From an uncultured Candidatus Bathyarchaeia archaeon (lineage in GTDB: Archaea; Thermoproteota; Bathyarchaeia; TCS64; B23), in NCBI GenBank assembly GCA_964525955.1, contig CAZGKJ010000001.1, forward strand, positions 4,069 to 68,068: a stretch of 64,000 nt of DNA, written 5' to 3'. The notes below the pieces were generated by a model. The model worked only from the letters and a program-made list of their open reading frames with translations, did not search any database and was not told the origin of the DNA. The translations under genes and the position numbers were made by a program. Below are positions 24,150 through 63,302 of this stretch, piece after piece; within the stretch, counting starts at the first letter, position 1, and each line of letters starts with the position of its first letter.

Positions 24150-24938
24150 TTGGTTCGGATGCTCCGGGAGGTCTTGGAGGTTCTTGAGGAGGAGGCTGAG
24201 CGATGGGGTTTGAGGGGCGTCATCGGCTTCGCCCCCTTCAAAGATGTCTACAAAGCCCTTATGTCGATTCAGAGGAGGAGGCTTGAGGAGCTCTGCGGCG
24301 ATGCGGGGGGCGTCATGCGGAGCGCCATCTCCATTGCCTACGCCTATCCCAGAGATGTCATCGACGCCATACCCATGGAGGGATACCGGGATTCATGGAA
24401 CATCTACGCCAGGGCCTATCATAGATTGAATAGGGCTCTGAACCAGACGGCGGAGAGGGTCGCCGAGTTCGTCGATGGGGTCGCCGTCCCCGCAACCCTC
24501 GAGGGCTTCACGGATAGAGTTGAGCATGTGAGGGACTTCTACGCCGCAACTGTCTCCCATAGGGTGGCAGCGGAGCTGGCTGGCATCGGCTGGAGGGGGA
24601 AGAGCGGATTGATTGTGAATCCCCGATATGCCTCCGCGATAAGATTGGCCACCATCTACACCCCCCTGGAGTTCACATCAACGGGGCCTTCGGAGGGAGA
24701 CTGCGCCGACTGTCGAGCCTGCCTCGAGGCCTGTCCACTGCTAAGGGCTGAGAGGCTCAGCGAGGATTATAGGGAGCTATGTCGACGATATATCATCGCC
24801 CTTGAGAAACGTGGATTGGAGGCCGATGTCTGCGGACGCTGTGTGAGGGCCTGCGTCGAATCCTTCGAATCTGGATATATGAGTCGACACTTAAACCCGG
24901 ATTGGATTAGGAGGCCCTACTACATCGACATAGATTGA
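24150..24938 (+). CDS. QueG/reductive-dehalogenase-like Fe-S protein (DUF1730 + 4Fe-4S ferredoxin motifs)
   Basis: 'AGIGWRGKSGLIVNP.YASAIRLATIYT' resembles the epoxyqueuosine-reductase family core. It is followed by 'CADCRACLEACP' and 'CGRCVRAC' cysteine clusters. Confidence 0.55.
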   Translation: MVRMLREVLEVLEEEAERWGLRGVIGFAPFKDVYKALMSIQRRRLEELCGDAGGVMRSAISIAYAYPRDVIDAIPMEGYRDSWNIYARAYHRLNRALNQTAERVAEFVDGVAVPATLEGFTDRVEHVRDFYAATVSHRVAAELAGIGWRGKSGLIVNPRYASAIRLATIYTPLEFTSTGPSEGDCADCRACLEACPLLRAERLSEDYRELCRRYIIALEKRGLEADVCGRCVRACVESFESGYMSRHLNPDWIRRPYYIDID

Positions 24939-24977: not shown

Positions 24978-25877
24978 TTAGGGGATTTTGAAGAGGGGGT
25001 GTTCCCTGCTGAGTTTTAGGCCTCCCCTCATCGCTGGGAAGGCGTAGGCGGCGTCCACCATGGCGACGGCTGGATAGACGTAGGGGGCCTCCTCTATCGG
25101 GCCGTAGAGGAGGAAGTCTGCTCCGAGGGCTGCTGCCACGGCGTTGACGGCCGCCACCGCCGGCCTCCTGGCTTTGATCCCCATCTTCTTTTTAAGGCCC
25201 CTCCATAGGCCTATGGCGTTGTGGGGGCCGCATCCGGCTGGTAGTCCCCACTTGGACTTGGCCTCAGGTATGGCTTGGAGGGCTGCTCCGAGGCTTGGTA
25301 TGTCCATCACGAAGGTGTCCAGGATCGGCTTCTCGACGCCGTAATCCTTAATGGTTTCAAGAAGTTTTTGGAGGGCTTTGATCCTGCCGGCTGCGGTGAG
25401 GTCTGAGACGTTGTAGGCGAGGAGGATGGCGCATTCAACCCCCGCATCCCTTATTGCTTCGAGTTCATTCTTCTCACAGCCTGGCAGCAGGGAGTTGTAG
25501 ACGATACGTTTTGTGAGCCCCACCTCCCCAGCCCATTTCAGGGCTTCGATCCTCACCTCCGGCGTTGGCCCGCCGAGGAGTAGGGGCTCATCGGTGACGT
25601 CGGCTGCGAATTCGAGGTATCTCTTCAAGGCCTCGGAGGTTGCTCCCTCCACGTCGAGCATGGAGGGGTTTCCCGTCCGATCTGAGAACTCCTCCTGAAG
25701 CCTTATGAGCTCCTCAGCCTTCTCCTCGTCGAAGACTCCTCGGCGATCATCCTCGACGATCCTATGCTTCTTGTAGAATATTGTGCCTATCAGCACCGTA
25801 GGGTCTCGACCTGGTATCCCACCGACCTTTACTCCTGCGATCTCGAAGATCTTCTGTTCAGCCTCCAGCCTCATCAA
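24978..25877 (-). CDS. MtrH-family methyltransferase (methylcorrinoid:tetrahydromethanopterin/tetrahydrofolate methyltransferase-like)
   Basis: The N-terminal 'FEIAGVKVGGIPGRDPTVLIGTIF' matches the MtrH/pterin-binding methyltransferase signature. It is the last gene of an operon with an MttB-family gene. Confidence 0.7.
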   Translation of the reverse strand: MMRLEAEQKIFEIAGVKVGGIPGRDPTVLIGTIFYKKHRIVEDDRRGVFDEEKAEELIRLQEEFSDRTGNPSMLDVEGATSEALKRYLEFAADVTDEPLLLGGPTPEVRIEALKWAGEVGLTKRIVYNSLLPGCEKNELEAIRDAGVECAILLAYNVSDLTAAGRIKALQKLLETIKDYGVEKPILDTFVMDIPSLGAALQAIPEAKSKWGLPAGCGPHNAIGLWRGLKKKMGIKARRPAVAAVNAVAAALGADFLLYGPIEEAPYVYPAVAMVDAAYAFPAMRGGLKLSREHPLFKIP

Positions 25878-27000
25878 CCTGCTCCACCACCTCGACGCCT
25901 CGCTTATGGAGCTCCATCAGTATCTCCTCGAAGATCCGAGGCTTCAGACCCAGCTTCTCAGGGGGTATCACACCCCTCTCCCCTATTCGCCCCCTCGCCA
26001 ATAGCTGGGCCACTATGGAGGTGGTGTAGCCCGTCGTCCTCGCCATAGCCGTGACGCCTCTCGCCCTGTCGTATCTGTCGAGGAGGTGGAATCTGATGGT
26101 CTTCTCAGCTCCATCCTTCAGACCCTTAACCTCCACCATCATCGCCAGGAGGTCTCCCACCTCCGGCATCCTGAGATGCTTCTCCAGCAGCCTCGCCGTG
26201 AAGCGCTTAGGTGAGACCTTCACCCCCTCAACCTCTATGGGTTCGTCGTCGAAGAGGCCTAGGTCTCTGAGCAGCTTAACCTTCTCCACATGCCCTGGAT
26301 ACCGGAGCGTCTTCTCATACATGCTCTCCACTCCCTTGAAGGTGTCGATGAGGGTTCTCAGGCCATCTGTGTAGAAGGCCTCCAAACGGCCGAGCCCTGG
26401 GAACTCGATCTCCTCGAGGCCGCTGAGAGCTGGAACCTCGACGACTCTGCCTCCCTCGACGATGCGGACGGGCCGCATATACTCGTCGATGAGTCCCTCA
26501 GCAGACCATGTTATCGTATAGCCCAGCGGTGGAACCGGCCTCTCCGGTATGCCTCCGACGAGTATGTGGGCCTCCCTAACCTCGTCGAGCTTCGAGGCCC
26601 CATAGCCCACCAGCATATTCGACAGCCCTGGAGCCACACCGCAGTCGGGGATGAGCGTCATCCCCCTCCGTCGAGCCTCCTCGTCGAGGATCAGCGGATT
26701 CTCAGGTGTGTAGGAGACATCCACCATGTCCACGCCCACCTCGACGGCGGCCTCCATGGCGTTGAAGCCGTAGTCCCCTGGAAGCGCCCCAACGGCGATG
26801 TCGAATCCCCTTAAGGCTTGGGCTATGCTCCCCCTACTTGAGGCGTCGACGGTCATCCACTCCCCGCCGATCTCCCCTGCCACCCGTCGGGCCGCCGTCT
26901 CAAATTTATCTGCGACGGTTATCTCAGCCTCCAGCGACTCGGAGAGGTCTCTGGCGATGGTGGAGCCGATCTTTCCGCAGCCGATGACTATGATTCGCAT
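25858..27000 (-). CDS. Saccharopine-dehydrogenase-family NAD(P)-dependent oxidoreductase
   Basis: An N-terminal Rossmann 'MRIIVIGCGKIGSTIARDL' is followed by a Sacchrp_dh-like C-terminal domain. The likely start is the internal Met at ~27000; the ORF track begins at 27063. Confidence 0.6.
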   Translation of the reverse strand: MRIIVIGCGKIGSTIARDLSESLEAEITVADKFETAARRVAGEIGGEWMTVDASSRGSIAQALRGFDIAVGALPGDYGFNAMEAAVEVGVDMVDVSYTPENPLILDEEARRRGMTLIPDCGVAPGLSNMLVGYGASKLDEVREAHILVGGIPERPVPPLGYTITWSAEGLIDEYMRPVRIVEGGRVVEVPALSGLEEIEFPGLGRLEAFYTDGLRTLIDTFKGVESMYEKTLRYPGHVEKVKLLRDLGLFDDEPIEVEGVKVSPKRFTARLLEKHLRMPEVGDLLAMMVEVKGLKDGAEKTIRFHLLDRYDRARGVTAMARTTGYTTSIVAQLLARGRIGERGVIPPEKLGLKPRIFEEILMELHKRGVEVVEQVDEAGG

Positions 27001-27004
27001 CCCC

Positions 27005-28462
27005 TCACACCTCCGACCTCTCAAGGTTGTATCTTTTGAAGATGGAGTTGAGCACCTCCTCAAGCGCCTGTGCCCTCTCCTCCGGCATCGGCTTGGGCTG
27101 ATGCTCCCTCAGCAGCCTCTCCACCCGTTCCTTGGCCCTGGTGATGATGTCCTTTGATCCGGCTTTCTTCCAGGCGTCTATGGTGAGTCTGCAGACCACA
27201 TCTGAGGGGATATATCTCTCTCTTCTGAAGTGCTTCATCGTATGCCTCTCACCCAGATAGTGGCCTCCTGGGCCCACCTTCTCTATGACGTCCAGAGCCA
27301 GGGTCTCCTCATCGACATCTATGCCCTCTAGGAGCCTATAGGCCATGGCGCACAGCTCGTCGTCGATGACAAGCTTCTCCAGGGACTGACAGTTCTCCTC
27401 AACCAGCATACCTGGGCCTGAGACTACGTTTACTCCCGTCAGCGCAGCCATCAAGATGCCGAGGGCTGACTCAAAGCAGCTCTGCCCGTCGACGACCTTT
27501 GAGTCGCTTAGGCCGAGGTATCCATGGGTTGGGAGTCCATAGTATTTCCCGATCTCGGCTCCTGCGCAGGCCGTCATCATCGCCTCTATGGCTCCAAGCC
27601 TCGCTGTGGCGTATCTCATGTCGAAGAGTGTTGGGGAGCCGCCGTAGACGATGGGTGTCCCAGCCCTCCTGAGCTGGGTGATGACGATGCCGGTGATGAT
27701 CTCAGCGTTCGACTGGACGAGGGTTCCGGCGAGGGTGGCGGGGCTTGTCGCCCCTATCTGAGGCGCCGGAATGATCTCAGCCGGTATCCCCCTGTCGGCG
27801 AGGTCTATGAGGTTTTGAGCCGTTACGTCGCCCCAGATGAGCGGTGATGTGGGGCAGCAGTCGAAGATGGCTCTGGGTCTGCGTCTCAACTCCTCTGGGC
27901 CTCCTACGGCTGCGTTTAGCATCTCAGCCATATCGATGAGGCCTCTCTTCGAGAATGCCCCGGTGATGATGGGCTTATCAGAATTCCTCAAAACGATATA
28001 CAGCCTATAGAGGTCTGCAACCACCTCTGGGACGTCTGAGGGGACGATGGCTGTGCTCTGAGCCTCGATGTGTTCAAGGGCATCGGCCAATCGCACCAGC
28101 TTCTCCAAGTCTCTTGAGGTTCCCCTCCTTATCTCTCCGGTCTCTGAGTCTAAGACGTATATGGCTGCTGAGCCTGGGTTGTAGACGACGTTGTCTCCTC
28201 CGATTAGGAGGGTCTTATCCCCGTCTCTGCTGTATAGCTCGATTTCGGATGGAGCCTTCTTCAGGCATTCAGTCGCCAGCTCCTCGGGTATCTTCACCCG
28301 TCTATCCTCCACTTCGCATCCATTTTCCCCAAGCAGTTTCAGGGCGTTTTCGTTTCTAACCTCTACGCCGACCCTCTCCAGAATCCTCATGGTTGAGGAG
28401 TGTATCTCCTCTATCTCCTCCCTCTCCAGAAGTCTGAATCCCCTAACCATGTCCTTCATCAA
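27005..28462 (-). CDS. MttB-superfamily methyltransferase (non-pyrrolysine quaternary-amine/trimethylamine:corrinoid methyltransferase-like)
   Basis: 485 aa with an MttB-like N-terminus ('...LLEREEIEEIHSSTMRILERVGVEV...') and a TIM-barrel body. The ORF is continuous with no in-frame TAG, so it belongs to the non-Pyl branch (MtgB/MtcB/MtpB-like). Confidence 0.7.
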   Translation of the reverse strand: MMKDMVRGFRLLEREEIEEIHSSTMRILERVGVEVRNENALKLLGENGCEVEDRRVKIPEELATECLKKAPSEIELYSRDGDKTLLIGGDNVVYNPGSAAIYVLDSETGEIRRGTSRDLEKLVRLADALEHIEAQSTAIVPSDVPEVVADLYRLYIVLRNSDKPIITGAFSKRGLIDMAEMLNAAVGGPEELRRRPRAIFDCCPTSPLIWGDVTAQNLIDLADRGIPAEIIPAPQIGATSPATLAGTLVQSNAEIITGIVITQLRRAGTPIVYGGSPTLFDMRYATARLGAIEAMMTACAGAEIGKYYGLPTHGYLGLSDSKVVDGQSCFESALGILMAALTGVNVVSGPGMLVEENCQSLEKLVIDDELCAMAYRLLEGIDVDEETLALDVIEKVGPGGHYLGERHTMKHFRRERYIPSDVVCRLTIDAWKKAGSKDIITRAKERVERLLREHQPKPMPEERAQALEEVLNSIFKRYNLERSEV

Positions 28463-28787
28463 TCTGCTCTCTAATCAATTAAGTTTGACGATAACCTCTC
28501 CAGTTGAGTATGAAGGGGTGGGGTCTCCATCACATCGCCCTGCATAGGCGTGGGATTTAGGGTGACGCTCTGGAAATAACTTTAAGTGTGAAGCTATACT
28601 TCTAGGCACCCACTCCCCTTAATTAGGAGCTGTTGTGAAACGCTTCTAAAAATGGTTGATATGCGAACTCTTAACGAGTTATTCTGGCCCTTTCCGTTCT
28701 GAATCTGACCAACTGGACTAATTCGTGGTAGAGGTTTTTAATGTCACTTGGATTTAACCCTAGAGGTTGAAGTATGTATTTCTCCAT

Positions 28788-31658
28788 CTAATATCTGACG
28801 GGATTTCGGGCTTCATGCTCTATATCCATGGGCCTCATCGAGAGAAGCTTTTCAACGGTCTCTAAGAAGTCTCTCGTTTCTCCTCTTCTATCCAACTCGT
28901 CTCGAAGCCATAGAGGATCTATAACAGGTATGCATTCATAGTCTATTACGTTAACGTCTAGAGCACCTTGACCAAGGTTTGTTCGACCGATAACCTCCAT
29001 ACTAGTGTAGGTGGTTATAGAGTTTAATGTAGCAAAGATGAAGCGTGGGTCTAGACTCTTATACTTATCTTTTAACCTTCCTCCGAAAAATCTCTTGTCT
29101 ATCTGCGCACCAGTAATATTGTTCATGTATATTGCGAAATTCTTGTGAATTGCATTTTTAAATATGAACATCGCTCCAGAGGTATCTGGCAATCTAACCC
29201 ACGTCGGCTCATCTATATATTTGACGATGGTTGGGAACCTCCTATTTGTTTTATGTTCTTCGATCACGAATCTATGGCACCATTCCACATAACGTTTAAT
29301 ACCAGGTGCATCTACATCATTAATATTCCCTACCCATATAACGTAATCATCCCTTCTCCGTCTAGGAAGTCTATCTATCCTATAAGTTGAACCTCGAATA
29401 TGTGCGAGTCTCATAAGAGGTCTTAAATACCGTTTTTCCAGCTTCAAAAGTGTTCTAGATATAACACTTTTAAGCTCTAGATAGTTTTCGTCCTCCCTAT
29501 AATACCTCCAGTACTTCGATGGGAGATAGAATAGTTCATTCGCATTAGTAGTGAGTCCTCGATATATTTCAAGCACATCTTTCAATAACACCATTGGTAT
29601 TTCATCTCTGATAAAACCGAATATAAGATTGAGGTATGTTTTTGATCCTCTGAATATACCCCACTTCCCTAGCCTCTCTTCAATCTCCTGAAGGGCTCTC
29701 TTTCTAACGGCTATAACTCTCATATCCTCATTCTCTAGGATCGAATAATTTTCAGCTTCGAGACTACACGAGTCTGCATAAGAGTAAAGACCCTCTATTC
29801 CCTCATAATACCTCTCGTTAGCTGTATAGTCCACAGATGGAGGTGGATCTCCTATTAAGCTTCGCAGAGGCTTCTTAAGGAAGATGAACCTTAATACATG
29901 ATCTGGACTCCTATCTTTTTCAGCAACTATGATATTAGTTATTATCTCAGCATCTTCAAACCACTTCTCAACAAGTGACTCCACAACATAGTGGATCATG
30001 AAGTTTTCCATAAGCCATCTCTTTAAAGGCGAACCATACTCAGCGTTCATCCAAGAGTTTTCAACTATAAACCCTAGTCTCCCCCCTTCCTCCAGTAGTT
30101 TCCCCCCTCCAACTAGGAAGTAAGCGTATATCGAAGCCTTCTTGCTCCAGCCTGAGATATCTGATACCGCCTTCATGAGATACTCCTTATATCTTCTGTC
30201 GTAAAACGCCATAGCCATCTCCTCTTGTCTGGTATACGGTGGATTGGTGACGACATAACTGTACCCTGGGGGGAGCTCTATTTTGAAGAAGTCGCCGTGA
30301 TGAATCTTAGGAGTATACCTGTACATTTTCTTAATCTCTTCAAGTGCTTGAATGTATAGGTTGATCTTGGAGAGCATGGAAGCTAGCTTATCTATGTCAA
30401 TCCCCTCAACGAACTCGAAGACATCCCTCTCTAAACCATATTTTATTCTCCAGAGGTTTAAAGCTCTGACCAGGAAAGTGCCAGAACCACAGGCTAGATC
30501 TAAAATGCGACCAGGTTTATCTAATGTAGCTGTGAGTATGAGGTCTACGATCTTTGTGTCTGTGTAATGCTGCCCTAAAAGATGTCTCCTCTCTTCATAA
30601 ATCAGCCCCTCGAAAATCCTACCGATCACGTCTACGTTTATCTCGCCCCACCGTATCTGATTAAGATAGGAGAGGAGTTGTTTTATCGATGATAAGGAAG
30701 GCTCTACGATAGGAAGTCTATCCACAACATTTGTGCCAAATATCTCCTCAAAGTCGCCGGTTCTCTCAATCGCATACTCAAATAACATATCGAATATTTT
30801 CTTAAATAGCTGTGCATCCGATATGTCGCCTATGGAGGAAAGGTTTTCACGTAGTTTAGCAGCCATTTCAGCATCTATACTTTGAAGCACCATATAGAAG
30901 AGCATTTTAAGCGATAAAGTGTAAAGCTGTTCCTTCAACATCAACATAAGATAGTTCCGAAGCTCGGAGTCATTTCGAGGGCTTTCAAGCCCCCTTTCCT
31001 TTCGCCAACTCTCAAAGCACTTTCTCACCTCTAATTCGCTTCGATATAAATACTCAAGCCTGGTTAACCCCCGTGATGCTCCCTCCTCAATATACCTTCT
31101 TATAGTATAGATAACCTCCGTGCTTAGATCAAGTGTTTTCCCTTCAAGGATTTCCCTAAACCTAAGTAAGAACATTTCAAGATTCCTTCTGGCTTCTCTA
31201 TTCACAGATATCTGCTTATAATCATTTATTGACCTAACCCATGGCATTATCTGAAATGGAAAATCAGAAACAGGAACCCAAATCCTTGTACGCCTCCCAT
31301 GAATATACTCCAAAAGAGTAGGTTGACGCTTCCTAAAAGTAATATATCTGAAGACTTTCAAATATCGCATGTTATGTGTCGCATAAAACTGTAAACCCAT
31401 GTTCTTCCTATACCATTCAGCATATCTTAAAGCCTGCTCGTTCAACTCAGGATCACTTAGTAGAATTTCCGGTCTCTTAACCTCGATCACAGCCACGGGT
31501 TCACCCTTATAGTAAAGTTTAACGTCAGGCTTACCGGAAGGGGTGCGCCAGTTGGCTTCGGCATCAAAGCCTAAACCTTCTCCTACTTCCTTAATAACAG
31601 AGATGAGTTCCGTTACATAGGTCTCTTCTGTAGGCTCCTCAACCATAATATTCAACAA
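28788..31658 (-). CDS. Type IIG restriction-modification enzyme (fused PD-(D/E)xK endonuclease + gamma-class N6-adenine DNA methyltransferase + TRD; MmeI-like)
   Basis: The N-terminus has 'GKPDVKLYYKGEPVAVIEVKRPE' (PD...EVK nuclease motif). The central MTase has motif I 'LDLACGSGTFL' and motif IV 'VVTNPPYT'. The 956-aa single polypeptide is markedly more AT-rich than its flanks. Confidence 0.75.
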   Translation of the reverse strand: MLNIMVEEPTEETYVTELISVIKEVGEGLGFDAEANWRTPSGKPDVKLYYKGEPVAVIEVKRPEILLSDPELNEQALRYAEWYRKNMGLQFYATHNMRYLKVFRYITFRKRQPTLLEYIHGRRTRIWVPVSDFPFQIMPWVRSINDYKQISVNREARRNLEMFLLRFREILEGKTLDLSTEVIYTIRRYIEEGASRGLTRLEYLYRSELEVRKCFESWRKERGLESPRNDSELRNYLMLMLKEQLYTLSLKMLFYMVLQSIDAEMAAKLRENLSSIGDISDAQLFKKIFDMLFEYAIERTGDFEEIFGTNVVDRLPIVEPSLSSIKQLLSYLNQIRWGEINVDVIGRIFEGLIYEERRHLLGQHYTDTKIVDLILTATLDKPGRILDLACGSGTFLVRALNLWRIKYGLERDVFEFVEGIDIDKLASMLSKINLYIQALEEIKKMYRYTPKIHHGDFFKIELPPGYSYVVTNPPYTRQEEMAMAFYDRRYKEYLMKAVSDISGWSKKASIYAYFLVGGGKLLEEGGRLGFIVENSWMNAEYGSPLKRWLMENFMIHYVVESLVEKWFEDAEIITNIIVAEKDRSPDHVLRFIFLKKPLRSLIGDPPPSVDYTANERYYEGIEGLYSYADSCSLEAENYSILENEDMRVIAVRKRALQEIEERLGKWGIFRGSKTYLNLIFGFIRDEIPMVLLKDVLEIYRGLTTNANELFYLPSKYWRYYREDENYLELKSVISRTLLKLEKRYLRPLMRLAHIRGSTYRIDRLPRRRRDDYVIWVGNINDVDAPGIKRYVEWCHRFVIEEHKTNRRFPTIVKYIDEPTWVRLPDTSGAMFIFKNAIHKNFAIYMNNITGAQIDKRFFGGRLKDKYKSLDPRFIFATLNSITTYTSMEVIGRTNLGQGALDVNVIDYECIPVIDPLWLRDELDRRGETRDFLETVEKLLSMRPMDIEHEARNPVRY

Positions 31659-31753
31659 TCATTAACTAAATACAACTTATAAACTAATCCAAATCGCCCT
31701 CCCTTGCTAAGGGTGTAAAGCCTAGCCTAAATAGAGGGAAAATTCTGGGGCCT

Positions 31754-32500
31754 TCATACTCCTATGCAGGGCGCCAGGTAGTAGATGAGCTTCCCCTTCG
31801 GTATCTCGAAGTTCAGCTTGATGGGCATATCCGTTGAGAGCTCCAGTGTGGCTACCTCGCTGGAGGCTGAGGCCGCATTTATGATGTCTTGGAGGTAGCT
31901 TAGGGTGAAGGTGGCTGAGCTCGGCTCCTCCACCTTCAGCTCCAATAGGTCTTCGGCCTCGAGTGTCCAGACGCTGGAGACGCTTCCGATGTCGCCCTCG
32001 GCGCTGATCTTGAATTCCTCCTCGTTGATCTCCAGCTTCACATGCTCCCCGACGAGGGAGGCATCCTTAATCGCCCTCTTCAGGCTTGGGGTCAGTATCC
32101 TCGCTGAGGCTTTGAAGAATATCTTCGGCGTCGGGGTCTCCTCTTCCAGGGGTTCGAGGAGGGGCATGAGGAATCTCCGCTTGTGGCCTCCCCTCATACA
32201 CTCTATGGAGAGCCTCCCCTCCTGGAGGGTCATCTTAACCTGCTCCCCCCTCTCAACCCTGTCGAGGAATTTCAGGAGCTCCCTTATGTTGACGGTCAGC
32301 CTCGTCTCCTCATCGCAGAGATATTCATCGAAGAAGTCCCTCGGCAATTCGAAGTCCACCATGGCGACGTGGCTTGGATCCATGGCGAGGAGCTTCATCT
32401 CCTCCTCATCGATGTTGAAGCTCCCCTCCTCCACGATGACGGAGAGGGCCTTAACGAGCCTCTTGAAGGCGTCTATGCTGGAGAGCTGAACCTCGAACAA
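31754..32500 (-). CDS. pcna: DNA polymerase sliding clamp PCNA
   Basis: A 248-aa protein with PCNA-like N- and C-terminal domains ('MFEVQLSSIDAFKRLVKALSVIVEEGSFNIDEEEMKL...'). Confidence 0.85.
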   Translation of the reverse strand: MFEVQLSSIDAFKRLVKALSVIVEEGSFNIDEEEMKLLAMDPSHVAMVDFELPRDFFDEYLCDEETRLTVNIRELLKFLDRVERGEQVKMTLQEGRLSIECMRGGHKRRFLMPLLEPLEEETPTPKIFFKASARILTPSLKRAIKDASLVGEHVKLEINEEEFKISAEGDIGSVSSVWTLEAEDLLELKVEEPSSATFTLSYLQDIINAASASSEVATLELSTDMPIKLNFEIPKGKLIYYLAPCIGV

Positions 32501-45572: not shown

Positions 45573-45899
45573 ATGGGTTTGGAGCTATCGACGGCGGAGG
45601 CCCTCCTAGAGGATCGCCCCCTCAAGGCCGCCCTACTGGAGTTGGGGAACGCAGTCATCGCCCTCTTCTGGCTTGGAGATGAGCCGAGGCTGGGAACGCT
45701 CACCATCTCCATGCCTGGAGGCGTCTCATCACCCCTCCTCGGCGATCGAGACCGAGTTCTCAGTCAGGTCATCGCTGAGCGCCTCGCCCACCTCTATGGG
45801 AAGATGGCCCTCGTCTCCATAAATCTCCCCCCAGACCTCGAGGTCTCCGCCGGTAGGGTGCTGCTTAAGCTGGTTGGGGAGCTGGTGAGGGAGCGTTGA
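45573..45899 (+). CDS. Hypothetical protein (108 aa), first gene of the mevalonate-pathway operon
   Basis: ORF whose stop overlaps the UbiD-like start; no motif was recognised. Confidence 0.3.
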   Translation: MGLELSTAEALLEDRPLKAALLELGNAVIALFWLGDEPRLGTLTISMPGGVSSPLLGDRDRVLSQVIAERLAHLYGKMALVSINLPPDLEVSAGRVLLKLVGELVRER

Positions 45900-47239
45900 G
45901 CGATCTAAGGGGCTTCCTCAGGGAGCTTGACTCGAGGGGGGAGCTCCTCCACATAGATGAGGAGCTATCAACCCGATTCGAGGTCGCCGCCGTTATGAAG
46001 CATCTCGACGGCAGACCCCTCCTATTCACGAGGATCGAGGGCTATGAGAGCAGAATCGCTGCGGGTCTCTGCTCCAATAGGCGTCTAATCCAAGAGGCCT
46101 TAGGCGTTGAGGGCCTGGAGCTCTATGAGAGACTCCTCTCAGCCGTGAGGAATCCGAGGAGATGCGAAGTCGGCGACGGCCCCGTGAAGGAGAGAGCGGT
46201 GGATAGGCCAAGGCTGAGCCAATTCCCCATCCTCACCCACTTCGAGGGGGATCCAGGCCCCTACATCACATCGGCAGCCCTCTACGCCAGGACTCCCGAC
46301 GGCGAGATAGAAAACGTCTCCATACATCGCCTCCTCGTCCTCGACGACCATAGATTGACCCTCAGGATAGTTCCAAGACATCTCTATCGAATCGTTGAGG
46401 CGGCGAGGGAGGGCGGCGTAGAGAGCATAGATGTCAGCATCTCCATAGGGCTTCACCCAGCCATTCTCCTCGCAGCGTCGACGCCCGCCCCCTACGGAGT
46501 CTCGGAGTTCGATGTGGCCAACGCCCTCCTGGATGGAGGCCTCAAACTGACGGAGTGTGAGCATATCGACGCCCTGGCTCCGGCTGACGCAGAGCTGGTT
46601 TTAGAGGGGCGTTTGAAGGTGGATGAGACTGCTGTTGAGGGGCCCTTCGTCGATTTGACTGGAACCTACGACGTTGAGCGGAGTCAGCCGGTCATCGAGG
46701 TTGTCGGAGCCATGTATAGGGCTGACTACATCTATCAGGCACTCCTCCCCTCCGGGATGGAGCATCGCCTATTGATGGGCCTCCCCAGGGAGGCTAAGAT
46801 ATGGGACTACGTCCGAGGTGTGACGCCTCATGTCAGGGGTGTAAACCTCACATCTGGGGGATGTGGATGGCTCCACTGCGTCGTCAGCATCCGGAAGGTT
46901 CGGGAGGGAGACCCTAAGAATGTTTTGATGGCCGTCTTCGCAGCCCATCCAAGCCTTAAGCACGCCGTCGTCGTCGATGAGGACATCGACCCCTACAACC
47001 CTGAGGAGGTTGAGTGGGCCATAGCGACGAGATTCAGGGGTGATGAGGATCTGTTGATCATACCTCATGTCAGGGTTTCAAGCCTCGATCCGGCTTCGGA
47101 TCAGAGGCTTGAGCTCGGCTGTAAGGTGGGCGTCGACGCCACGAGGCCGCTGTCTAAGCCTGAACGCCACTTTAAGAGGGCTGAGATACCTGTTTCGGAG
47201 CGTGTTAGACGGCTTTTGGGGAGGCTGGGATGTATCTAA
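45896..47239 (+). CDS. UbiD-family decarboxylase, probable trans-anhydromevalonate-5-phosphate decarboxylase of the archaeal mevalonate pathway
   Basis: It has a UbiD-family N-terminus ('...LLHIDEELSTRFEVAAVMKHLDGRPLLFTRIEGY...'). It lies immediately upstream of the AcnX large and small subunits, the pairing described for the archaeal-type mevalonate pathway. Confidence 0.65.
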   Translation: MSDLRGFLRELDSRGELLHIDEELSTRFEVAAVMKHLDGRPLLFTRIEGYESRIAAGLCSNRRLIQEALGVEGLELYERLLSAVRNPRRCEVGDGPVKERAVDRPRLSQFPILTHFEGDPGPYITSAALYARTPDGEIENVSIHRLLVLDDHRLTLRIVPRHLYRIVEAAREGGVESIDVSISIGLHPAILLAASTPAPYGVSEFDVANALLDGGLKLTECEHIDALAPADAELVLEGRLKVDETAVEGPFVDLTGTYDVERSQPVIEVVGAMYRADYIYQALLPSGMEHRLLMGLPREAKIWDYVRGVTPHVRGVNLTSGGCGWLHCVVSIRKVREGDPKNVLMAVFAAHPSLKHAVVVDEDIDPYNPEEVEWAIATRFRGDEDLLIIPHVRVSSLDPASDQRLELGCKVGVDATRPLSKPERHFKRAEIPVSERVRRLLGRLGCI

Positions 47240-48420
47240 CCCGACTTGAGGAGGAGATGCTTGAAGGCGAGATGGGGGAGGCCGTGGCGAGGGCCATGAG
47301 CCTCCTCGTCGCCCTCGGGGAGGTCTTCGAGGCTGAGAGGCTAATCGAAGTGGAGAGCGCCCACATCTCAGGAGTCTCCTATAAGAATCTCGGCGAAGCT
47401 GGATTGGAGTATCTCGAGGAGCAGGCTGAGCTGGGGGCCCATGTGCGTATAAGGGCGACGCTCAACCCAGCTGGAATGGACTTGGAGCGGTGGGGGGAGA
47501 TGGGTGTCTCCCCTGAATTCGCTGAGGGTCAGCTTAGGGTGATCGAGGCCTATAGGCGTATGGGCGTTGAGGCCACCTGCACCTGTACACCCTATCTCAT
47601 AGGTCATAGGCCGAGGGCTGGAAGCCAGGTCGCCTGGGCTGAGTCCTCAGCCGTCGCCTACGCCAACTCCGTTCTCGGCGCCAGAACTAATAGGGAGACT
47701 GGGCCTACAGCCCTCGCCTCAGCTATCACGGGTAGGGCTCCTCTACACGGATATCGATTGGAGGAGAATAGGAGGCCGAGCATCATCATCGATGTGAAGG
47801 CCCACCTCAGCTCCAAATTCGATTATGGAGCCCTCGGCTACCTCATCGGAGAGATCGCAGGTCGAAGCGTCCCCTACATCAGGGGTTTGAGGGGTGCAAG
47901 CATAGAGCAGCTTAAAGCCCTCTCAGCGGCCATAGCCACCTCAGGTGGTGTGGCCCTCTACCACATCGAGGGCTTAACCCCCGAGGCCAGGAGGATGACT
48001 CGACACCTTGGGGATTTGGAGCATATACCAATAAAGCCCGACGGCCTGAGGGAGGTGGCTGAACGCTTCCAGGGGGCTGGGGAGGAGGCCATAATCTGCG
48101 TCGGCTGCCCCCACTGCAGCCTCAGGGAGCTGATGGAGGTCGCCATGCTGCTGGAGCGTCGAAGCTGTGAGAGGTTATGGGTCTTCACAAGCAGGGATGT
48201 CTACATGAAGGCTGAGCGGCTGGGCATAGTCAGGGCCATCGAGGAGGCTGGGGGCAGGGTCTACCGGGATACCTGCATGGTGGTTGCGCCTCTTAGGGAG
48301 ATGGGGTGGAGGGAGGTGGCGACGAACAGCTTTAAGGCGGCCCACTACCTCTCCTCCATGGGCCTCACGGTTCAGGTTGCGCCTCTAAGGGAGCTTCTGG
48401 GGAGGGGTCATGAGGATTAG
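47230..48420 (+). CDS. Aconitase X catalytic (large) subunit, probable phosphomevalonate dehydratase large subunit
   Basis: AcnX/DUF521-like sequence ('...AHISGVSYKNLGEAGLEYLEE...CTCTPYL...'). Confidence 0.65.
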   Translation: MYLTRLEEEMLEGEMGEAVARAMSLLVALGEVFEAERLIEVESAHISGVSYKNLGEAGLEYLEEQAELGAHVRIRATLNPAGMDLERWGEMGVSPEFAEGQLRVIEAYRRMGVEATCTCTPYLIGHRPRAGSQVAWAESSAVAYANSVLGARTNRETGPTALASAITGRAPLHGYRLEENRRPSIIIDVKAHLSSKFDYGALGYLIGEIAGRSVPYIRGLRGASIEQLKALSAAIATSGGVALYHIEGLTPEARRMTRHLGDLEHIPIKPDGLREVAERFQGAGEEAIICVGCPHCSLRELMEVAMLLERRSCERLWVFTSRDVYMKAERLGIVRAIEEAGGRVYRDTCMVVAPLREMGWREVATNSFKAAHYLSSMGLTVQVAPLRELLGRGHED

Positions 48421-48805
48421 GGGTAGAAGGATAGTCGGCGGATACGCTGAGGGGGAGGCCATAATAAGCGGCGCACCCTTCAGCTTCTACGGCGGCGTAG
48501 ACCCCGACACAGGTGTCATAACTGAGCCTGGCCATCCCCTTGAGGGTGAGAGCATAGCTGGAAAGGTCTTCATCTTCCCCCATGGGAGGGGAAGCACCGT
48601 TGGCTGCTACATAATCTATCGTATGCATCGTCGGGGGACGGCTCCGGCGGCCATCATAAACCTGGAGACGGAGACGATCATCGCCACGGGATGCGCCATG
48701 GCTGGAATCCCACTTATGGATCGCCTTGAGGAGAATCCGTTGAGGCTGCTTAGGAACGGTGATCTCGTCGCCGTCAACGCCGATGAGGGATATATAGAGA
48801 TTTAG
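48410..48805 (+). CDS. Aconitase X swivel (small) subunit, probable phosphomevalonate dehydratase small subunit
   Basis: DUF126-like sequence ('...GEAIISGAPFSFYGGVDPDTGVI...GKVFIFPHGRGSTVG...'). Confidence 0.65.
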   Translation: MRIRGRRIVGGYAEGEAIISGAPFSFYGGVDPDTGVITEPGHPLEGESIAGKVFIFPHGRGSTVGCYIIYRMHRRGTAPAAIINLETETIIATGCAMAGIPLMDRLEENPLRLLRNGDLVAVNADEGYIEI

Positions 48806-53279: not shown

Positions 53280-53930
53280 TTACATGGGTGCTATCTTCAG
53301 GACTTGGAGGAAGAACTGCGCCCTGCCGGAGAGCATCGCCATCCTGAAGAGGACGGTGTTGCCGAAGTATGCTCCAAGGCCGATCATGATGATCCAGCGT
53401 CCAAGCCTCGTCGCATAGCCCATTCCACCCCTATGCTCCCATGTCAGGACGAAGTACATGACGGCGCAGATGGTTCCTATCGCTATGTAGATGTAGTTCC
53501 ACCAGTCAACAGCCCCCGCCCCAGTGGCCGGCGGGGTGATCGTCGAGATCACCTGGTTTGTGATGTTGGGTATGAGGACTCCCCTCATACCGAGTCCGAA
53601 GCCGGCTCCTACGAGGATGGCGATTGGATATCGGCTTATCCACCTATACTTCGGCGTCAATAGGAAGAACATCATGAAGCCGAGGATGATGGGTATGACG
53701 TACCAGACCTTCCCCTGCATTAGAGGCGGCCCAACCATCCTTATCGTCGTCGTAATCGTCGTCCTCACGAGCATGATGGCCAGCATCAATCCGACGTAGG
53801 TGTGCTCCGCGAACCTGAAGGCAGGATTCTCCTTATACAGCGGGTAGCTGTAGATCATCAGCATCAGCAGCCATGCAATCCACAGGCCAGCGATTCCAGC
53901 TGGATCGGTTGGGTAGGGCATCCACCTCAC
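53280..53930 (-). CDS. Uncharacterized polytopic membrane protein, cassette A subunit 4/4 (paralog of 61190..61816)
   Basis: About 6 hydrophobic helices. The motifs 'FRFAEHTY', 'PKYRWISRYPIAILVGAGFGLGMRG' and 'GRWIIM...YFGNT' are shared with the cassette-B protein. Its stop overlaps the upstream gene. Confidence 0.5.
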   Translation of the reverse strand: MRWMPYPTDPAGIAGLWIAWLLMLMIYSYPLYKENPAFRFAEHTYVGLMLAIMLVRTTITTTIRMVGPPLMQGKVWYVIPIILGFMMFFLLTPKYRWISRYPIAILVGAGFGLGMRGVLIPNITNQVISTITPPATGAGAVDWWNYIYIAIGTICAVMYFVLTWEHRGGMGYATRLGRWIIMIGLGAYFGNTVLFRMAMLSGRAQFFLQVLKIAPM

Positions 53931-54766
53931 CTCCTCCTACCCCTGCTGGCGAAGTAGCCGATGTTCGCCAGCACTACGGCTATGATGACGAGGATGTGGG
54001 AGATGTTTATGGCTCCCATCCTGATGGTTGCCTCACCAGGCTCTCCGATGAGCTTCTCCAATTCAGCTCCTCCCCTGACTCCGACGCTCATACCGAAGAG
54101 GACTCCGGACTTGTAGAAGGGCATGTAGCTGGAGCCCAGCATCGCGATCCCTATCTCGGCGACGGGTACACCATAGGGGATGCGCCACTGCCTGATGTAG
54201 TAGTCGCAGACGTCGCCGGTGTCTCCGGAGAGAACCAGCTTGATATCCGTCGCCTTGTCGACGTTCTTCATCATCGGAATCTCGTCGAGGGGCGTCCCAT
54301 AGTTATCCGTCTCGAATATGCTTCTAATCGAGGAGGCGAGCTGGGCTACGGCCGCCTCCTGGTAGGGGTAGTATCCAAGGTAGACGTAGTCCTCTCCATA
54401 CTTTAGGTCCTTGAAGTAGTCCTCGCACCTCCTCAGAACCTCCTCATAGCTCAGGTCGACGTCGTAGTAGGCTCCCCAGAAGATGATCTTGGCGCCCTCC
54501 TTTATCAGGAGCTTTGTGCAGGCGGCGAAGGCTGGCATACACTCAGGCCAGGCGCTCACTCCGAAGGCTATATTCATCACGACTACGTCTCCAGGCTCCA
54601 CCATCTCTATTATGCCCTCATAGAGGTCTCTGGTGGATGGGCTGATGCTGATGGGGAACATGATGGGCCTGATGAAGGGTATCATGAGGCCGATGAACAG
54701 TATCCAGTAGAAGACTCGGCGATCAATCCTCGCCAGCTTCTCCCAGAAGGTGAGCTCCTCACTCAT
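53927..54766 (-). CDS. Uncharacterized bitopic membrane protein (N- and C-terminal TM, central soluble domain), cassette A subunit 3/4 (paralog of 61813..62655)
   Basis: Hydrophobic N-terminus 'VFYWILFIGLMIPFI' and C-terminus 'ILVIIAVVLANIGYF'. The central domain aligns along its length with the cassette-B protein. Confidence 0.5.
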   Translation of the reverse strand: MSEELTFWEKLARIDRRVFYWILFIGLMIPFIRPIMFPISISPSTRDLYEGIIEMVEPGDVVVMNIAFGVSAWPECMPAFAACTKLLIKEGAKIIFWGAYYDVDLSYEEVLRRCEDYFKDLKYGEDYVYLGYYPYQEAAVAQLASSIRSIFETDNYGTPLDEIPMMKNVDKATDIKLVLSGDTGDVCDYYIRQWRIPYGVPVAEIGIAMLGSSYMPFYKSGVLFGMSVGVRGGAELEKLIGEPGEATIRMGAINISHILVIIAVVLANIGYFASRGRRR

Positions 54767-55425
54767 TCACCAGCCACCTCCCCATAGAATCCTCTCTCCC
54801 TGCCCAGCAGCGCCCTGAATCCGTAGGCGAGCATGCCGAAGGCTGCGACGATTAGGAAGCATCTCATCCCAGGCACCTGACCATAGTCGAGGAACCATCG
54901 CCCTATCACCGGTATGCCGCTCCAGATGACTCCCCCTATCGGGGCGTTGGTTAGGATGACGAAGCAGCCTGCGATGAGCAGCAGGGCCGCATCTATGTTC
55001 CTCGCCCTGAAGGCCCTGTAGGCGGCTGAGAAGATGTAGAATCCCGTGATGGCGTATAGAGTTTGGCCCAGGCTTGTGTAAGGCCACGTGAAGAGCCAGT
55101 TGTAGAGGAGGTTAGTCATGGCATCCTGCTTTGTGACATAGCCCGCGAGGCCACTGAAGAGAGTGATGAGGAAGATGATCCATAGCCAGATACTGAAGGG
55201 CCATAGTCCAGCCCTCCTCTTCTGGATGTTCTTGGCATGCTCAGACAGCAGCCTTATGGCTCCCAATGCGATGGAGATGTTCGCGATGATGGTGGCCCAG
55301 GTTCGAAGCTCCTCAGCGACGTTCCAGGTGCCTATGAAGAAGAACTCTATGAACATCAGTATGGTGACTATGGCGGTTATGAGGTAGACAACCTCCCTCC
55401 TCAAAACCTCAGCCATATTCACCAC
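54763..55425 (-). CDS. Uncharacterized polytopic membrane protein, cassette A subunit 2/4 (paralog of 62658..63293)
   Basis: About 6 hydrophobic helices. 'AYRAFRARNIDAALLL' is matched by 'AYKALRIRNIDSLFLF' in cassette B. Confidence 0.5.
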   Translation of the reverse strand: MVNMAEVLRREVVYLITAIVTILMFIEFFFIGTWNVAEELRTWATIIANISIALGAIRLLSEHAKNIQKRRAGLWPFSIWLWIIFLITLFSGLAGYVTKQDAMTNLLYNWLFTWPYTSLGQTLYAITGFYIFSAAYRAFRARNIDAALLLIAGCFVILTNAPIGGVIWSGIPVIGRWFLDYGQVPGMRCFLIVAAFGMLAYGFRALLGRERGFYGEVAGE

Positions 55426-56231
55426 CTCAAAACGTTTATCAGCGCTGGATTCCTGGCGAAGCCGAGTATGAAGCCGATGATCATCAAGGCGATCAATATG
55501 AACTTCATTATGTCCTCACCTCTAAGGCAGCCGAGGATGTCTGGATCCTTGCTGATGGAGGCTCCGGCGGCGTATAGCTCCTCGGCCAGCAGGACGTAGT
55601 CGCAGGTGGCGACGAGGAAGGGCATCTGGTGGGTGTTGGCGGTTCCACCGATCTGGAAGGCTCCGATGGTGTTGCCGCCCTCACCCATTACGACGGACTC
55701 GTAGTAGAAGCCTCCTATCAGGAAGTTTGTTGCAGGCCTCTCCCTCTGGAAGTAGCCGAGGACGGCCGTCAGGTATGGTGACTGACCGGCGATGAAGTGT
55801 ATCATGTCTGGGGAGAACTCCTCAGGCTTCCCCTCAGCCATGTAGGCTGTTCGGAGAGTCTCCTCTGTGAGGGGGAGCGCCGTCGGGATGGGCATGAAGA
55901 CGTCGAGCTTCACACCCGTCCTGGCGCACTCCCTCGCTATGTAGCCGAGGATGCTTATAGCAGCCAGAACCTGTGGACCCTGCGTGGGGTCGTTCAGGTC
56001 TCCGGCGATGCCGGGTGTGAACATCACCGGCCTACCCATCTCAGCGGCCCTGCCGATCCCCTCAGGTATGGCGGCCATGGGTGGAAGCGTTCTGACCGGG
56101 ATCTCCCTTCCCTTCCTGCCGAGATACATGAATATGTAGAAGAGGATGTAGGAGAGCACCAGTATTACGAGGGCCATCCCTCTCCCTGAGACGATGATGG
56201 CCATATCCTCTTCCTCCCTTTTCCCCACCAT
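55419..56231 (-). CDS. Uncharacterized bitopic membrane protein, cassette A subunit 1/4 (paralog of 63303..>64000)
   Basis: N-terminal TM, then a soluble domain ('...GRAAEMGRPVMFTPGIAG...IGGTANTHQMPFLVATCDYVLLAEE...'), then a C-terminal TM. It aligns with the cassette-B protein ('GRAVEMGRPVFDIIGMG...IGGTARLYQIPFFAAVCDYVLIGEE'). Confidence 0.5.
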   Translation of the reverse strand: MVGKREEEDMAIIVSGRGMALVILVLSYILFYIFMYLGRKGREIPVRTLPPMAAIPEGIGRAAEMGRPVMFTPGIAGDLNDPTQGPQVLAAISILGYIARECARTGVKLDVFMPIPTALPLTEETLRTAYMAEGKPEEFSPDMIHFIAGQSPYLTAVLGYFQRERPATNFLIGGFYYESVVMGEGGNTIGAFQIGGTANTHQMPFLVATCDYVLLAEELYAAGASISKDPDILGCLRGEDIMKFILIALMIIGFILGFARNPALINVLRW

Positions 56232-61189: not shown

Positions 61190-61816
61190 TTAGTGGATGA
61201 TTCCCAGCCAGTCCCTCAGCAGGAATATGATTCTCCCCTGATACATCGAGAACCTCGTCATTATCGTGTTTCCGAAGGCTCCTCCGAAGGCGGCGAGCAT
61301 CATCCATCTCCCTATCTTCGGAATCCAGCCTGCAGCCCCCTTGTGTATCCCCTCGTATGTGAAGATGAAGTGCGTTAGAGCCGTGACTGTTCCAACGAAG
61401 ACTATTATGTTGTTGAGTGTTCCGAGGGGCGTCGTCGCTATTAGGGGCTTGGCCGTAGCTGCGATCTGCTTGATGAAGTCTGCGTGGATGGCTCCCCTAA
61501 TCGATATGCCGACTCCTATCCCGACGAGGAAGGCGATGGGGTAGCGGTATATCCAGTAGTATTTGGGGTGATATCTGGTGTAGATGAGGATGCCGAGGAT
61601 TATCGGAATCCAGTAGCTCGGCTCCCCACCGGCTATATGAGTCCATCCATATAGGATGACGTTCTTAACACCCATCACTATGGCGTGGCCGGCCGCTGCT
61701 CCTATGAAGGTGTACTCGGCGAATCTGAAGAATATGTTGTCCCTGAAGGCGTAGCTTGTCGCCACTATTGTGAAGAAGGCTGCGATCCAGACGCCAACAT
61801 CCGTTGAGACCATCAC
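61190..61816 (-). CDS. Uncharacterized polytopic membrane protein, cassette B subunit 4/4 (paralog of 53280..53930)
   Basis: Shares 'FRFAEYTF', 'PKYYWIYRYPIAFLVGIGVGISIRG' and 'GRWMML...AFGNT' with its cassette-A partner. Confidence 0.5.
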   Translation of the reverse strand: MMVSTDVGVWIAAFFTIVATSYAFRDNIFFRFAEYTFIGAAAGHAIVMGVKNVILYGWTHIAGGEPSYWIPIILGILIYTRYHPKYYWIYRYPIAFLVGIGVGISIRGAIHADFIKQIAATAKPLIATTPLGTLNNIIVFVGTVTALTHFIFTYEGIHKGAAGWIPKIGRWMMLAAFGGAFGNTIMTRFSMYQGRIIFLLRDWLGIIH

Positions 61817-62655: not shown

Positions 62656-62657
62656 CT

Positions 62658-63293: not shown

Positions 63294-63302
63294 ATTCCCA
63301 CC

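Follow-up and report, generated by a model that had tools for sequence, protein, structure and literature searches.

A lysine 6-dehydrogenase-like gene between MttB- and MtrH-family methyltransferase genes, a recurrent arrangement in Bathyarchaeia

Background

What is the role of a dehydrogenase encoded between two methyltransferases of corrinoid-dependent families, at a locus that encodes no corrinoid protein? The question is raised by a stretch of 64,000 nucleotides from an uncultured Candidatus Bathyarchaeia archaeon (GenBank assembly GCA_964525955.1, contig CAZGKJ010000001.1; the window, in what follows, is this whole 64-kb stretch), where genes for a methyltransferase of the MttB superfamily, a saccharopine-dehydrogenase-like oxidoreductase (SDH) and an MtrH-like methyltransferase follow each other on the minus strand. 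The window proteins share 87% identity with those of 'Candidatus Bathyarchaeota archaeon B23', their best matches are found in metagenome-assembled genomes of Bathyarchaeia from hydrothermal settings, and the other relatives are, going by the isolate names, of vent-type or thermal origin. Bathyarchaeia are among the most abundant archaea of anoxic sediments, and their many MttB-family genes usually carry the annotation 'trimethylamine methyltransferase', even though the products have no pyrrolysine.

Methyl-transfer genes of this kind have been reported for several archaeal groups from genomic data. A stand-alone MtrH encoded beside a corrinoid protein in Bathyarchaeia has been proposed to act as a methyl-corrinoid:tetrahydromethanopterin (H4MPT) transferase serving unidentified substrate-specific methyltransferases (PMC7886697), and clusters with a non-pyrrolysine MttB, an MtbC-like protein and MtrH in Asgard and TACK archaea are presented as an 'uncharacterized group' of non-methanogenic methylotrophy (PMC11291895). 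In another survey mttB genes are catalogued in seven Bathyarchaeia orders (PMC10321748). That non-methanogens demethylate methylated amines has already been predicted from the genomes of Bathyarchaeia, Asgard and other TACK archaea (PMC7886697, PMC11291895); the dehydrogenase has no place in these predictions so far as their available text goes.

In this work we analyzed the operon of the window, which a first-pass annotation made from the letters alone had singled out, together with related loci from genomes and metagenome contigs (designated by L-numbers). The linkage of the MttB and SDH genes turned out to be recurrent, and we propose a route in which both enzymes would act on the same amine.

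Results

The linkage between the MttB and SDH genes is recurrent

The order MttB-SDH-MtrH is kept in all the close relatives with enough sequence (L001, L002, L005, L007 and L085), whose MttB is 80-90% identical to that of the window, and the loss of synteny in related genomes that the first-pass annotation had named as a refutation is not seen in them. An alignment of the MttB subfamily, run against metagenome contigs, retrieved 80 loci, 64 of which carry enough downstream sequence to be informative. Directly downstream of MttB, SDH is found on the same strand in 20 of the 64, MtrH in 3, and something else in 41. The SDH-linked MttBs fall into at least three separate clades of a neighbour-joining MttB tree, and the MttB-linked SDHs form three matching clades in the SDH tree, interleaved with unlinked SDHs. 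The linkage also occurs in other layouts: the order is reversed (SDH-MttB) in L027, and L057 and L067 have MtrH and SDH in divergent orientation within a full cluster with MttB, the RACo activase and the corrinoid protein. In L105, L128 and L134 MttB adjoins a divergent SDH paralogue (~35% identity). The wedging of SDH next to MttB is real and recurrent, far beyond chance proximity.

One bathyarchaeal clade (L013, L094, L096, L097, L099 and L109) shows a further arrangement, with one to three MtmB-family genes before MttB-SDH, so that these loci are multi-methyltransferase islands. The copy of L013 matches PF05369 and those of the other loci were assigned to MtmB by clustering; the L013 gene (L013:3225-4643, 472 aa) has no internal stop and its product apparently no pyrrolysine.

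Organization of the operon

In the list of open reading frames (ORFs) of the window the three genes appear on the minus strand at 27005-28462, 25858-27063 and 24978-25877. The true starts are most likely the ATG at 28450 for MttB (MVRGF; 481 aa, matching the relatives), the ATG at 27000 for SDH (MRIIVIG; 380 aa, the length of all the homologues), and the ATG at 25874 for MtrH, as judged by comparison with relatives. Only 4 nt separate the MttB stop from the SDH start, and SDH and MtrH overlap by 17 nt (17-20 nt depending on the MtrH start); the three genes form one tightly packed operon, probably with translational coupling. All three are under purifying selection, with ratios of nonsynonymous to synonymous substitution rates (dN/dS) against close relatives (dS 0.3-1.2) of 0.08-0.11 for MttB, 0.10-0.15 for SDH and ~0.11 for MtrH. 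The ~45 nt directly before MttB are conserved in L001, L005 and L090 too; this native region includes a TATA-like A/T-rich element (Table 1) that is a candidate archaeal promoter of the operon, and a 3.26-kb insertion begins just beyond.

The MttB-family methyltransferase lacks the signatures of known substrates

The MttB ORF matches PF06253 (MTTB) with an E value of 7e-108 and 361 bits (cutoff 25), residues 6-470 of the protein covering positions 28-491 of the 500 in the profile. Its best matches in the PDB are MtgB of Desulfitobacterium hafniense (9yce/2qne, E 5e-85) and then MttB of Methanosarcina barkeri (7xcl, E 2e-67), and it aligns end to end with both. The first-pass annotation had named the three genes of the operon as MttB, a saccharopine-dehydrogenase-like enzyme and MtrH, and these identities are borne out by the Pfam families MTTB, the two saccharopine dehydrogenase domains and MtrH; the full-length match to PF06253 (COG5598) leaves the first of them firmly inside the MttB superfamily, so that the other refutation named in that annotation does not apply. 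It had also claimed the absence of an in-frame amber codon, and indeed the MttB ORF has no internal stop and carries Leu318, in the motif HGYLGLSDSK, opposite the pyrrolysine (X) of 7xcl, a position that is likewise Leu in MtgB. The protein scores 449.7 bits against TIGR02369, the equivalog family for trimethylamine methyltransferase, which is under the cutoff of 525. A pyrrolysine-type trimethylamine methyltransferase was discarded on these three counts: no UAG codon, Leu at the pyrrolysine site, and the score below the equivalog cutoff.

In MtgB, glycine betaine is bound by cation-pi contacts with Y97 and F356, and its carboxylate by R312 and H348; R312 recurs in every characterised member of the MttB family with an acidic quaternary amine as substrate (PMC13080624). 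The counterparts of these four residues in the window protein are S98, H313, S348 and E356. The signature S98/H313/L318/S348/E356, in place of the Y/R/L/H/F of MtgB, is present in 105 of 134 sequences of the subfamily, SDH-linked or not, with Q or N at times instead of H. Glycine betaine methyltransferase MtgB was discarded as an identity for the window protein, given that all the four binding residues differ; their replacement argues that the substrate is not glycine betaine, and an acidic betaine held in the manner of MtgB is probably not the substrate either. The conserved acidic residue of the pocket would suit a substrate that carries a further cationic group or has to be protonated. Judged from these residues, the substrate is neither glycine betaine nor the trimethylamine of the pyrrolysine enzymes.

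A second MttB copy, 86% identical to that of the window, was observed in a hydrothermal metagenome (L091, 581-2041). Core motifs that are usually invariant are changed in this copy (HGYLSPSDSK; IYSPSTALLDMRY), no SDH or MtrH lies downstream, and the DNA that follows is A+T-rich (by eye) and apparently foreign. This copy could be a paralogue in decay or one that has been neofunctionalised.

SDH is a close homologue of L-lysine 6-dehydrogenase

The enzymes of the SDH family carry out NAD(P)-linked redox reactions of a C-N bond at a terminal carbon. SDH of the window has the two domains of the family in order, PF03435 (NADP-binding; E 6e-16, 59 bits) followed by PF16653 (C-terminal; E 1e-51, 177 bits), and a Rossmann GxGxxG motif in which G7, G9 and G12 are invariant. 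The top match in the PDB, along the full length, is PH1688 of Pyrococcus horikoshii (3abi, E 2.7e-71), cited in the literature as NAD-dependent L-lysine 6-dehydrogenase (PMC10413350). PH1688 and SDH share the two-domain architecture, a similar length, and the Asp after the second Rossmann beta strand. We know of no report that links PH1688 to methyltransferases. The saccharopine reductases and carboxyspermidine dehydrogenase match SDH far less well (E 1e-19 to 1e-12), the carboxyspermidine dehydrogenase structure 8deb being a distant match with E 1.6e-12 against 2.7e-71 for 3abi; the catalytic triad of carboxy(nor)spermidine dehydrogenase, His-Glu-Glu, is His228/Glu229/Glu230 in BfCASDH of Bacteroides fragilis (PMC10413350). 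These comparisons place SDH close to NAD-dependent L-lysine 6-dehydrogenase. In the segment GCGKIGS...VAD of SDH the residue after beta-2, Asp31, is invariant, which suggests NAD as the cofactor and hence a catabolic direction for the enzyme.

In other lineages the gene neighbours of SDH and MttB offer some hints about the substrate. A class-I aminotransferase adjoins SDH in L143, L159 and L164, being placed after SDH on the same strand in L143; among named enzymes it is closest to GntC and VioD, whose substrates are arginine derivatives. A deacylase of the ArgE/DapE family is encoded near MttB in 6 loci, and a major facilitator superfamily transporter is present in three. Another neighbour of SDH (L016:689-1771) looks like an amidinotransferase by eye, had no match in Pfam or NCBIfam, and was not used as evidence.

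MtrH is a predicted stand-alone methylcorrinoid:pterin methyltransferase

The third protein of the operon matches PF02007 (E 2e-94, 317 bits) and passes the cutoff of the MtrH family NF002142 (329.8 bits, cutoff 287) and, narrowly, that of the mtrH equivalog TIGR01114 (275.1 bits, cutoff 271.4); against the MtgA equivalog NF047990 it reaches 259 bits, well under the cutoff of 550. Its matches in the PDB are 8z9u_B (E 2e-94), MtgA of D. hafniense (6sj8, E 4e-65), which is the methylcorrinoid:tetrahydrofolate methyltransferase of that bacterium, and then MtrH of the Mtr complex. The gene is flanked by SDH and by a QueG-like gene. No Mtr-family match for mtrA-G was found among the window genes that were scanned (a part of the ORFs was run against Pfam) or in the related loci, and membership in the membrane Mtr complex was ruled out on the absence of mtrA-G genes. 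In L084, L008 and L118 the gene immediately before the cluster is folC (TIGR01499; 369 bits, cutoff 163), a placement that hints at a folate-type methyl acceptor in that lineage.

The corrinoid protein is most likely encoded at another place of the genome

To search for the missing component, a hidden Markov model (HMM) was built from seven bathyarchaeal MttC-like proteins, all with the DxHxxG motif, and another from four RACo activases of related loci; both were run against every six-frame fragment of at least 40 aa in the window. Neither gave a significant match in the 64 kb (best E 0.31 for the corrinoid protein and 1.5 for RACo), so the window encodes neither a DxHxxG corrinoid protein nor an activase of the RACo/RamA type that these models recognise, just as the first-pass annotation had stated.

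That annotation had also hinted that the system itself may lack a corrinoid protein, and two relatives speak against this idea. In the metagenome contig L084, whose SDH and MttB are 69% and 64% identical to those of the window, the cluster is complete: FolC, a B12-binding corrinoid protein, MttB, SDH and MtrH follow in this order, with RACo convergent and an ArgE/DapE-type M20 deacylase adjoining. In GCA_054042865.1 (L001) MttB-SDH-MtrH are found in the exact context of the window, with MttB 89% identical, and the same 574-kb contig carries, ~458 kb away from the operon, an orphan gene for a 217-aa MttC-type corrinoid protein (P0359, in L087) with the motif DIHSIG. The corrinoid proteins adjacent to MttB in L084 and L008 share 78% identity with P0359 and the one encoded immediately before MttB in L003 shares 76%, against only 42% for a different corrinoid type, which is found in a RACo-corrinoid-URO-D row beside MtrH in L003. 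From the complete cluster of L084 together with the orphan gene of the close relative we infer that it is this locus, rather than the system, that lacks a corrinoid gene, and that members of the window clade most likely encode their cognate corrinoid protein at an unlinked site. The absence of an adjacent corrinoid gene should therefore not be taken as a corrinoid-independent mechanism.

The distribution among the other loci is mixed. A corrinoid gene directly upstream of MttB and SDH downstream coincide in 3 loci; 26 have only the corrinoid gene, 14 only SDH, and 12 neither, so that SDH-linked MttB seldom has an adjacent corrinoid gene (odds ratio 0.10, Fisher p ~0.001, uncorrected for phylogeny). 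Many SDH-linked loci have the corrinoid protein and RACo one or two genes off, and RACo was found in L084, L143, L160, L057 and L067.

The orphan corrinoid gene has a neighbour of its own. Directly before the P0359 gene and on the same strand lies a gene for a 149-aa PNPOx-like FMN-binding protein (PF12900), and this gene pair (L087 9504-10654 in GCA_054042865.1, contig JBPKUH010000004.1) was seen again in L088. It is possible that the PNPOx-like protein is a redox partner of the corrinoid protein.

Discussion

A proposed route for the methyl group and the amine

The route that best accommodates these proteins would begin with MttB, which by its family assignment would move a methyl group from an N-methylated amine to the Co(I) of a small corrinoid protein of the MttC type. 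This corrinoid protein would be encoded elsewhere, as the orphan gene of the close relative leads us to infer, and an activase of the RACo type is presumed elsewhere in the genome as well. The MtrH/MtgA-like enzyme would then hand the methyl group of methyl-Co(III) over to a reduced pterin, which would be H4MPT or tetrahydrofolate, and from there, going by the family and by the published models, it would enter the Wood-Ljungdahl pathway and the one-carbon (C1) pool. SDH, for its part, would most likely work on the skeleton of this amine and oxidise an omega C-N bond in it; it would probably act on the demethylated product, pulling the demethylation on and delivering the carbon skeleton to amino-acid catabolism. 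The first-pass annotation had suggested an oxidation of the demethylated amine as a possibility, and the homology of SDH to L-lysine 6-dehydrogenase makes this plausible. A corrinoid-dependent demethylation relay that ends on a pterin is the part of this route in which we place good confidence. The functional coupling of SDH to methyl transfer seems to us probable, with appreciable room for doubt, and about the same can be said of the whole model, namely two catalytic parts of a corrinoid relay and a coupled amine dehydrogenase in one operon. There is a precedent for a substrate-acting accessory enzyme inside an MttB-family cluster in the choline kinase MthK of the Mth system of Eubacterium limosum (PMC12155760).

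With regard to the substrate, a LysDH-like (L-lysine 6-dehydrogenase-like) SDH with aminotransferase and deacylase neighbours points weakly to a methylated basic amino acid, for instance N-epsilon-methylated lysine. A substrate of the methyl-lysine type is a speculative proposal, to which we give a low probability. Spelled out, the large MttB clade with the S/H/L/S/E signature would demethylate N-omega-methylated basic amino acids from degraded protein (for example N-epsilon-methyl-, dimethyl- or trimethyl-lysine), and the LysDH-like SDH would then remove the epsilon-nitrogen of the (de)methylated side chain by oxidation; where the betaine enzymes have an aromatic/Arg pocket, the conserved Glu would stand instead, and the aminotransferase and the ArgE/DapE deacylase would complete the route. 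This version is rather unlikely to be correct. If it were true, it would amount to a previously unknown anaerobic catabolism of methyl-lysine, feeding both the C1 pool and amino-acid fermentation in abundant sediment archaea. Whatever the substrate, a dehydrogenase fixed beside one MttB subfamily provides a handle on it, by pointing to amines with a skeleton that an enzyme of the lysine-6-dehydrogenase type can oxidise, and MttB and SDH are two named proteins for joint expression and assay.

Alternatives to the proposed route

Several observations weigh against a functional link between SDH and the methyltransferases. The SDH orthologue is near-universal in Bathyarchaeia, with 527 matching stretches in GTDB species-representative genomes; in the 80 of these stretches whose neighbourhoods were surveyed, most SDH loci have no methyltransferase neighbour, and one large SDH clade adjoins TFIIB/SUI1-like genes (labels read from the sequence). 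MttB genes with the same signature mostly have no SDH beside them, and a search for specificity-determining positions found no residue that separates linked from unlinked SDH, or linked from unlinked MttB. In addition, the clades of linked genes come from neighbour-joining trees without support values, and both the MttB subfamily and the SDH orthologue group are so far known as sequences. Ribosomal-protein and information-processing genes surround the operon in the window clade, and SDH might be a housekeeping gene that is merely co-transcribed with the two methyltransferase genes. We consider this unlikely, since MttB and SDH adjoin on the same strand in 31% of the informative loci, distributed over three clades, the reversed, divergent and paralogous layouts described above add to this, proximity within 3.5 kb would arise by chance in a few percent of cases at most (a rough figure, for about five MttB copies in a 2-Mb genome), and SDH is wedged between both methyltransferase genes with such a short gap on one side and an overlap on the other. 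Given that no residue differs between linked and unlinked copies, the physical linkage appears to be optional, and the enzymes are apparently the same in all the lineages.

The coupled route could also run in the opposite direction, in which case SDH would make the amine by reductive amination, and the methyl group would travel from methyl-pterin through MtrH and the corrinoid protein to MttB, which would N-methylate the amine, for example to form a compatible solute. The saccharopine-reductase family often works in reductive condensation, as in LYS9 and carboxyspermidine dehydrogenase (PMC10413350), and Loh et al. left open an anabolic role for the corrinoid protein-MtrH couples of Bathyarchaeia (PMC7886697). 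However, all characterised members of the MttB superfamily are demethylases (PMC13080624, PMC12155760), the closest characterised homologue of SDH deaminates oxidatively, and the invariant Asp that follows beta-2 points to NAD and not NADPH as the cofactor, as is typical of catabolic dehydrogenases, so the biosynthetic direction looks improbable. A different proposal keeps SDH out of amine chemistry and has it act on the pterin, oxidising methyl-H4MPT to methylene-H4MPT with NAD(P)+ in place of Mer or MetF. The potential of the methyl-/methylene-H4MPT couple lies low enough that NAD(P)+ could accept its electrons. The position of SDH between both methyltransferase genes and the chemistry of the family, which abstracts hydride from an N-bound carbon, would suit such an activity, and some lineages of Bathyarchaeia have no Mer (PMC7886697). 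Against this stand the full-length match to L-lysine 6-dehydrogenase (E 3e-71), an enzyme of small substrates, the lack of any SDH-family member known to act on pterins, and the presence of the SDH gene in nearly all Bathyarchaeia whatever its context; of a pterin-oxidising SDH we would say that it is extremely improbable. Finally, the corrinoid protein and RACo might be functionally replaced in the window clade by a cobalamin/Fe-S protein similar to QueG and RdhA, or by free cobamide. Besides the negative HMM searches and the scarcity of corrinoid genes directly adjacent to SDH-linked MttB, this proposal draws on the gene convergent to MtrH, which occupies the slot that RACo has in L084, is QueG-like, and keeps this position in the window clade alone, where the locus has neither corrinoid protein nor RACo; both QueG and RdhA use cobalamin, and the match extends over the cobalamin and first Fe-S core. 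The match is nevertheless weak (60 bits against a cutoff of 200 for TIGR00276), cobalamin binding by the protein is putative, the close relative of the same clade keeps an intact MttC-type gene of the very type found adjacent to MttB, and many SDH-linked loci of other clades have the corrinoid protein and RACo a gene or two away. Replacement is accordingly a very unlikely explanation, and the relay through an unlinked MttC-type protein is the one that we retain.

Comparison with known systems

The operon shares with the bacterial quaternary-amine systems, MtgB/MtgC/MtgA of D. hafniense and those of MtpB, MtcB, MtyB and MthB in E. limosum, a non-pyrrolysine enzyme of the MttB superfamily, with Leu at the pyrrolysine position as in MtgB, and a second methyltransferase of the MtrH/MtgA family. 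The MttC-type corrinoid protein and the activase of the RACo/RamA type of those systems are shared by the relative L084 and absent from the locus of the window, and the host is here an archaeon. All the four betaine residues of MtgB are replaced, R312 by His (Q or N in relatives) and F356 by Glu among them. The Mth system also has an extra enzyme that acts on the substrate, the kinase MthK, whereas here it is an amine dehydrogenase of the NAD type. The MttB of Methanosarcina (7xcl) belongs to the same superfamily; it contains the UAG-encoded pyrrolysine that is Leu in the window protein, and its chain leads to coenzyme M via MtbA, whereas the chain of the window is predicted to lead to a pterin via MtrH.

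The predicted methylotrophy modules of archaea (Bathyarchaeia, Brockarchaeia, Culexarchaeia and Asgard) have the same families and deliver the methyl group to H4MPT or tetrahydrofolate without Mcr (PMC7886697, PMC11291895, PMC10321748). In the available text of these sources no saccharopine-dehydrogenase or LysDH-like gene is mentioned as part of a module, whereas here such a gene lies between MttB and MtrH, and in ~31% of the loci of the subfamily it adjoins MttB. Our literature searches found no paper that links SDH or LysDH with MttB, or saccharopine with corrinoid methyltransferases, in archaea, nor a counterpart of the dehydrogenase in the described quaternary-amine systems, which is what the first-pass annotation had asserted. 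Within the reach of those searches, the embedded LysDH-like gene, its recurrence and the non-betaine signature are apparently undescribed; the MttB/MtrH part was already known as a prediction.

Other features of the window

The coordinates of the operon and of its immediate surroundings are given in Table 1.

Table 1. Position of the operon genes, the candidate promoter element and the convergent neighbour in the window
Feature	Coordinates	Strand	Remarks
MttB-superfamily methyltransferase (non-pyrrolysine; substrate:corrinoid)	27005..28462	-	longest ORF 485 aa; PF06253
SDH, NAD(P) oxidoreductase of the saccharopine-reductase/L-lysine-6-dehydrogenase family	25858..27000	-	380 aa; PF03435 + PF16653
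Stand-alone MtrH/MtgA-like methylcorrinoid:pterin methyltransferase	24978..25877	-	298-299 aa; PF02007
TATA-like A/T-rich element AAACTTAATTGATTAG	28471..28486	-	21-36 nt upstream of the probable MttB start
QueG/RdhA-like protein, convergent to MtrH	24150..24938	+	262 aa; TIGR00276 below cutoff, Cys pattern

The QueG-like protein has matches in the PDB to an epoxyqueuosine reductase (5d08, E 2e-9) and to PceA (8q4h, E 2e-4), and eight Cys arranged as CxxCxxCxxxC ... C...CxxCxxxC, as for two [4Fe-4S] clusters. A single-sequence AlphaFold2 model of it has a mean pLDDT of 43.7, a value too low for the model to serve as evidence. As far as we know, an archaeon of this kind should not make queuosine. 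With low probability the protein might take part in corrinoid handling, and it is uncertain whether the gene belongs to the methyl-transfer system; the orphan MttC-type gene kept by the close relative speaks against a need for such a role.

The insert upstream of the operon (28493-31755, 3.26 kb) has 41% G+C, against mostly 54-59% in the window, and leaves the ~45 nt of the native MttB upstream region in place. It contains a minus-strand gene (28788-31658) for a 956-aa N6-adenine DNA methylase of the Eco57I type with an N-terminal nuclease-like 'D...EVK' motif, which resembles a type IIG restriction-modification enzyme. The insert is missing in the syntenic loci L090, L001 and L005, where PCNA directly precedes MttB, and looks like a recent horizontal acquisition.

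Two colinear paralogous clusters of four membrane-protein genes, with 27-40% pairwise identity, are located at 53280-56231 and 61190-63986 on the minus strand; the first gene of the first cluster is a DUF6754 member, and the other cluster genes have no Pfam match. Between the clusters there are, among other genes, one for a 385-aa protein without a family match (56340-57497) and one for a glutamate-mutase-type 'MutL' (PF13941; 57499-59334). The latter might have signalled that the window encodes a B12 mutase and its B12-binding domain, an idea that was discarded when the corrinoid HMM found no such domain. On the plus strand, at 45896-48805, a UbiD-family decarboxylase gene is followed by the genes for the large and small subunits of aconitase-X (AcnX), a gene set that we take to be that of the archaeal modified mevalonate pathway.

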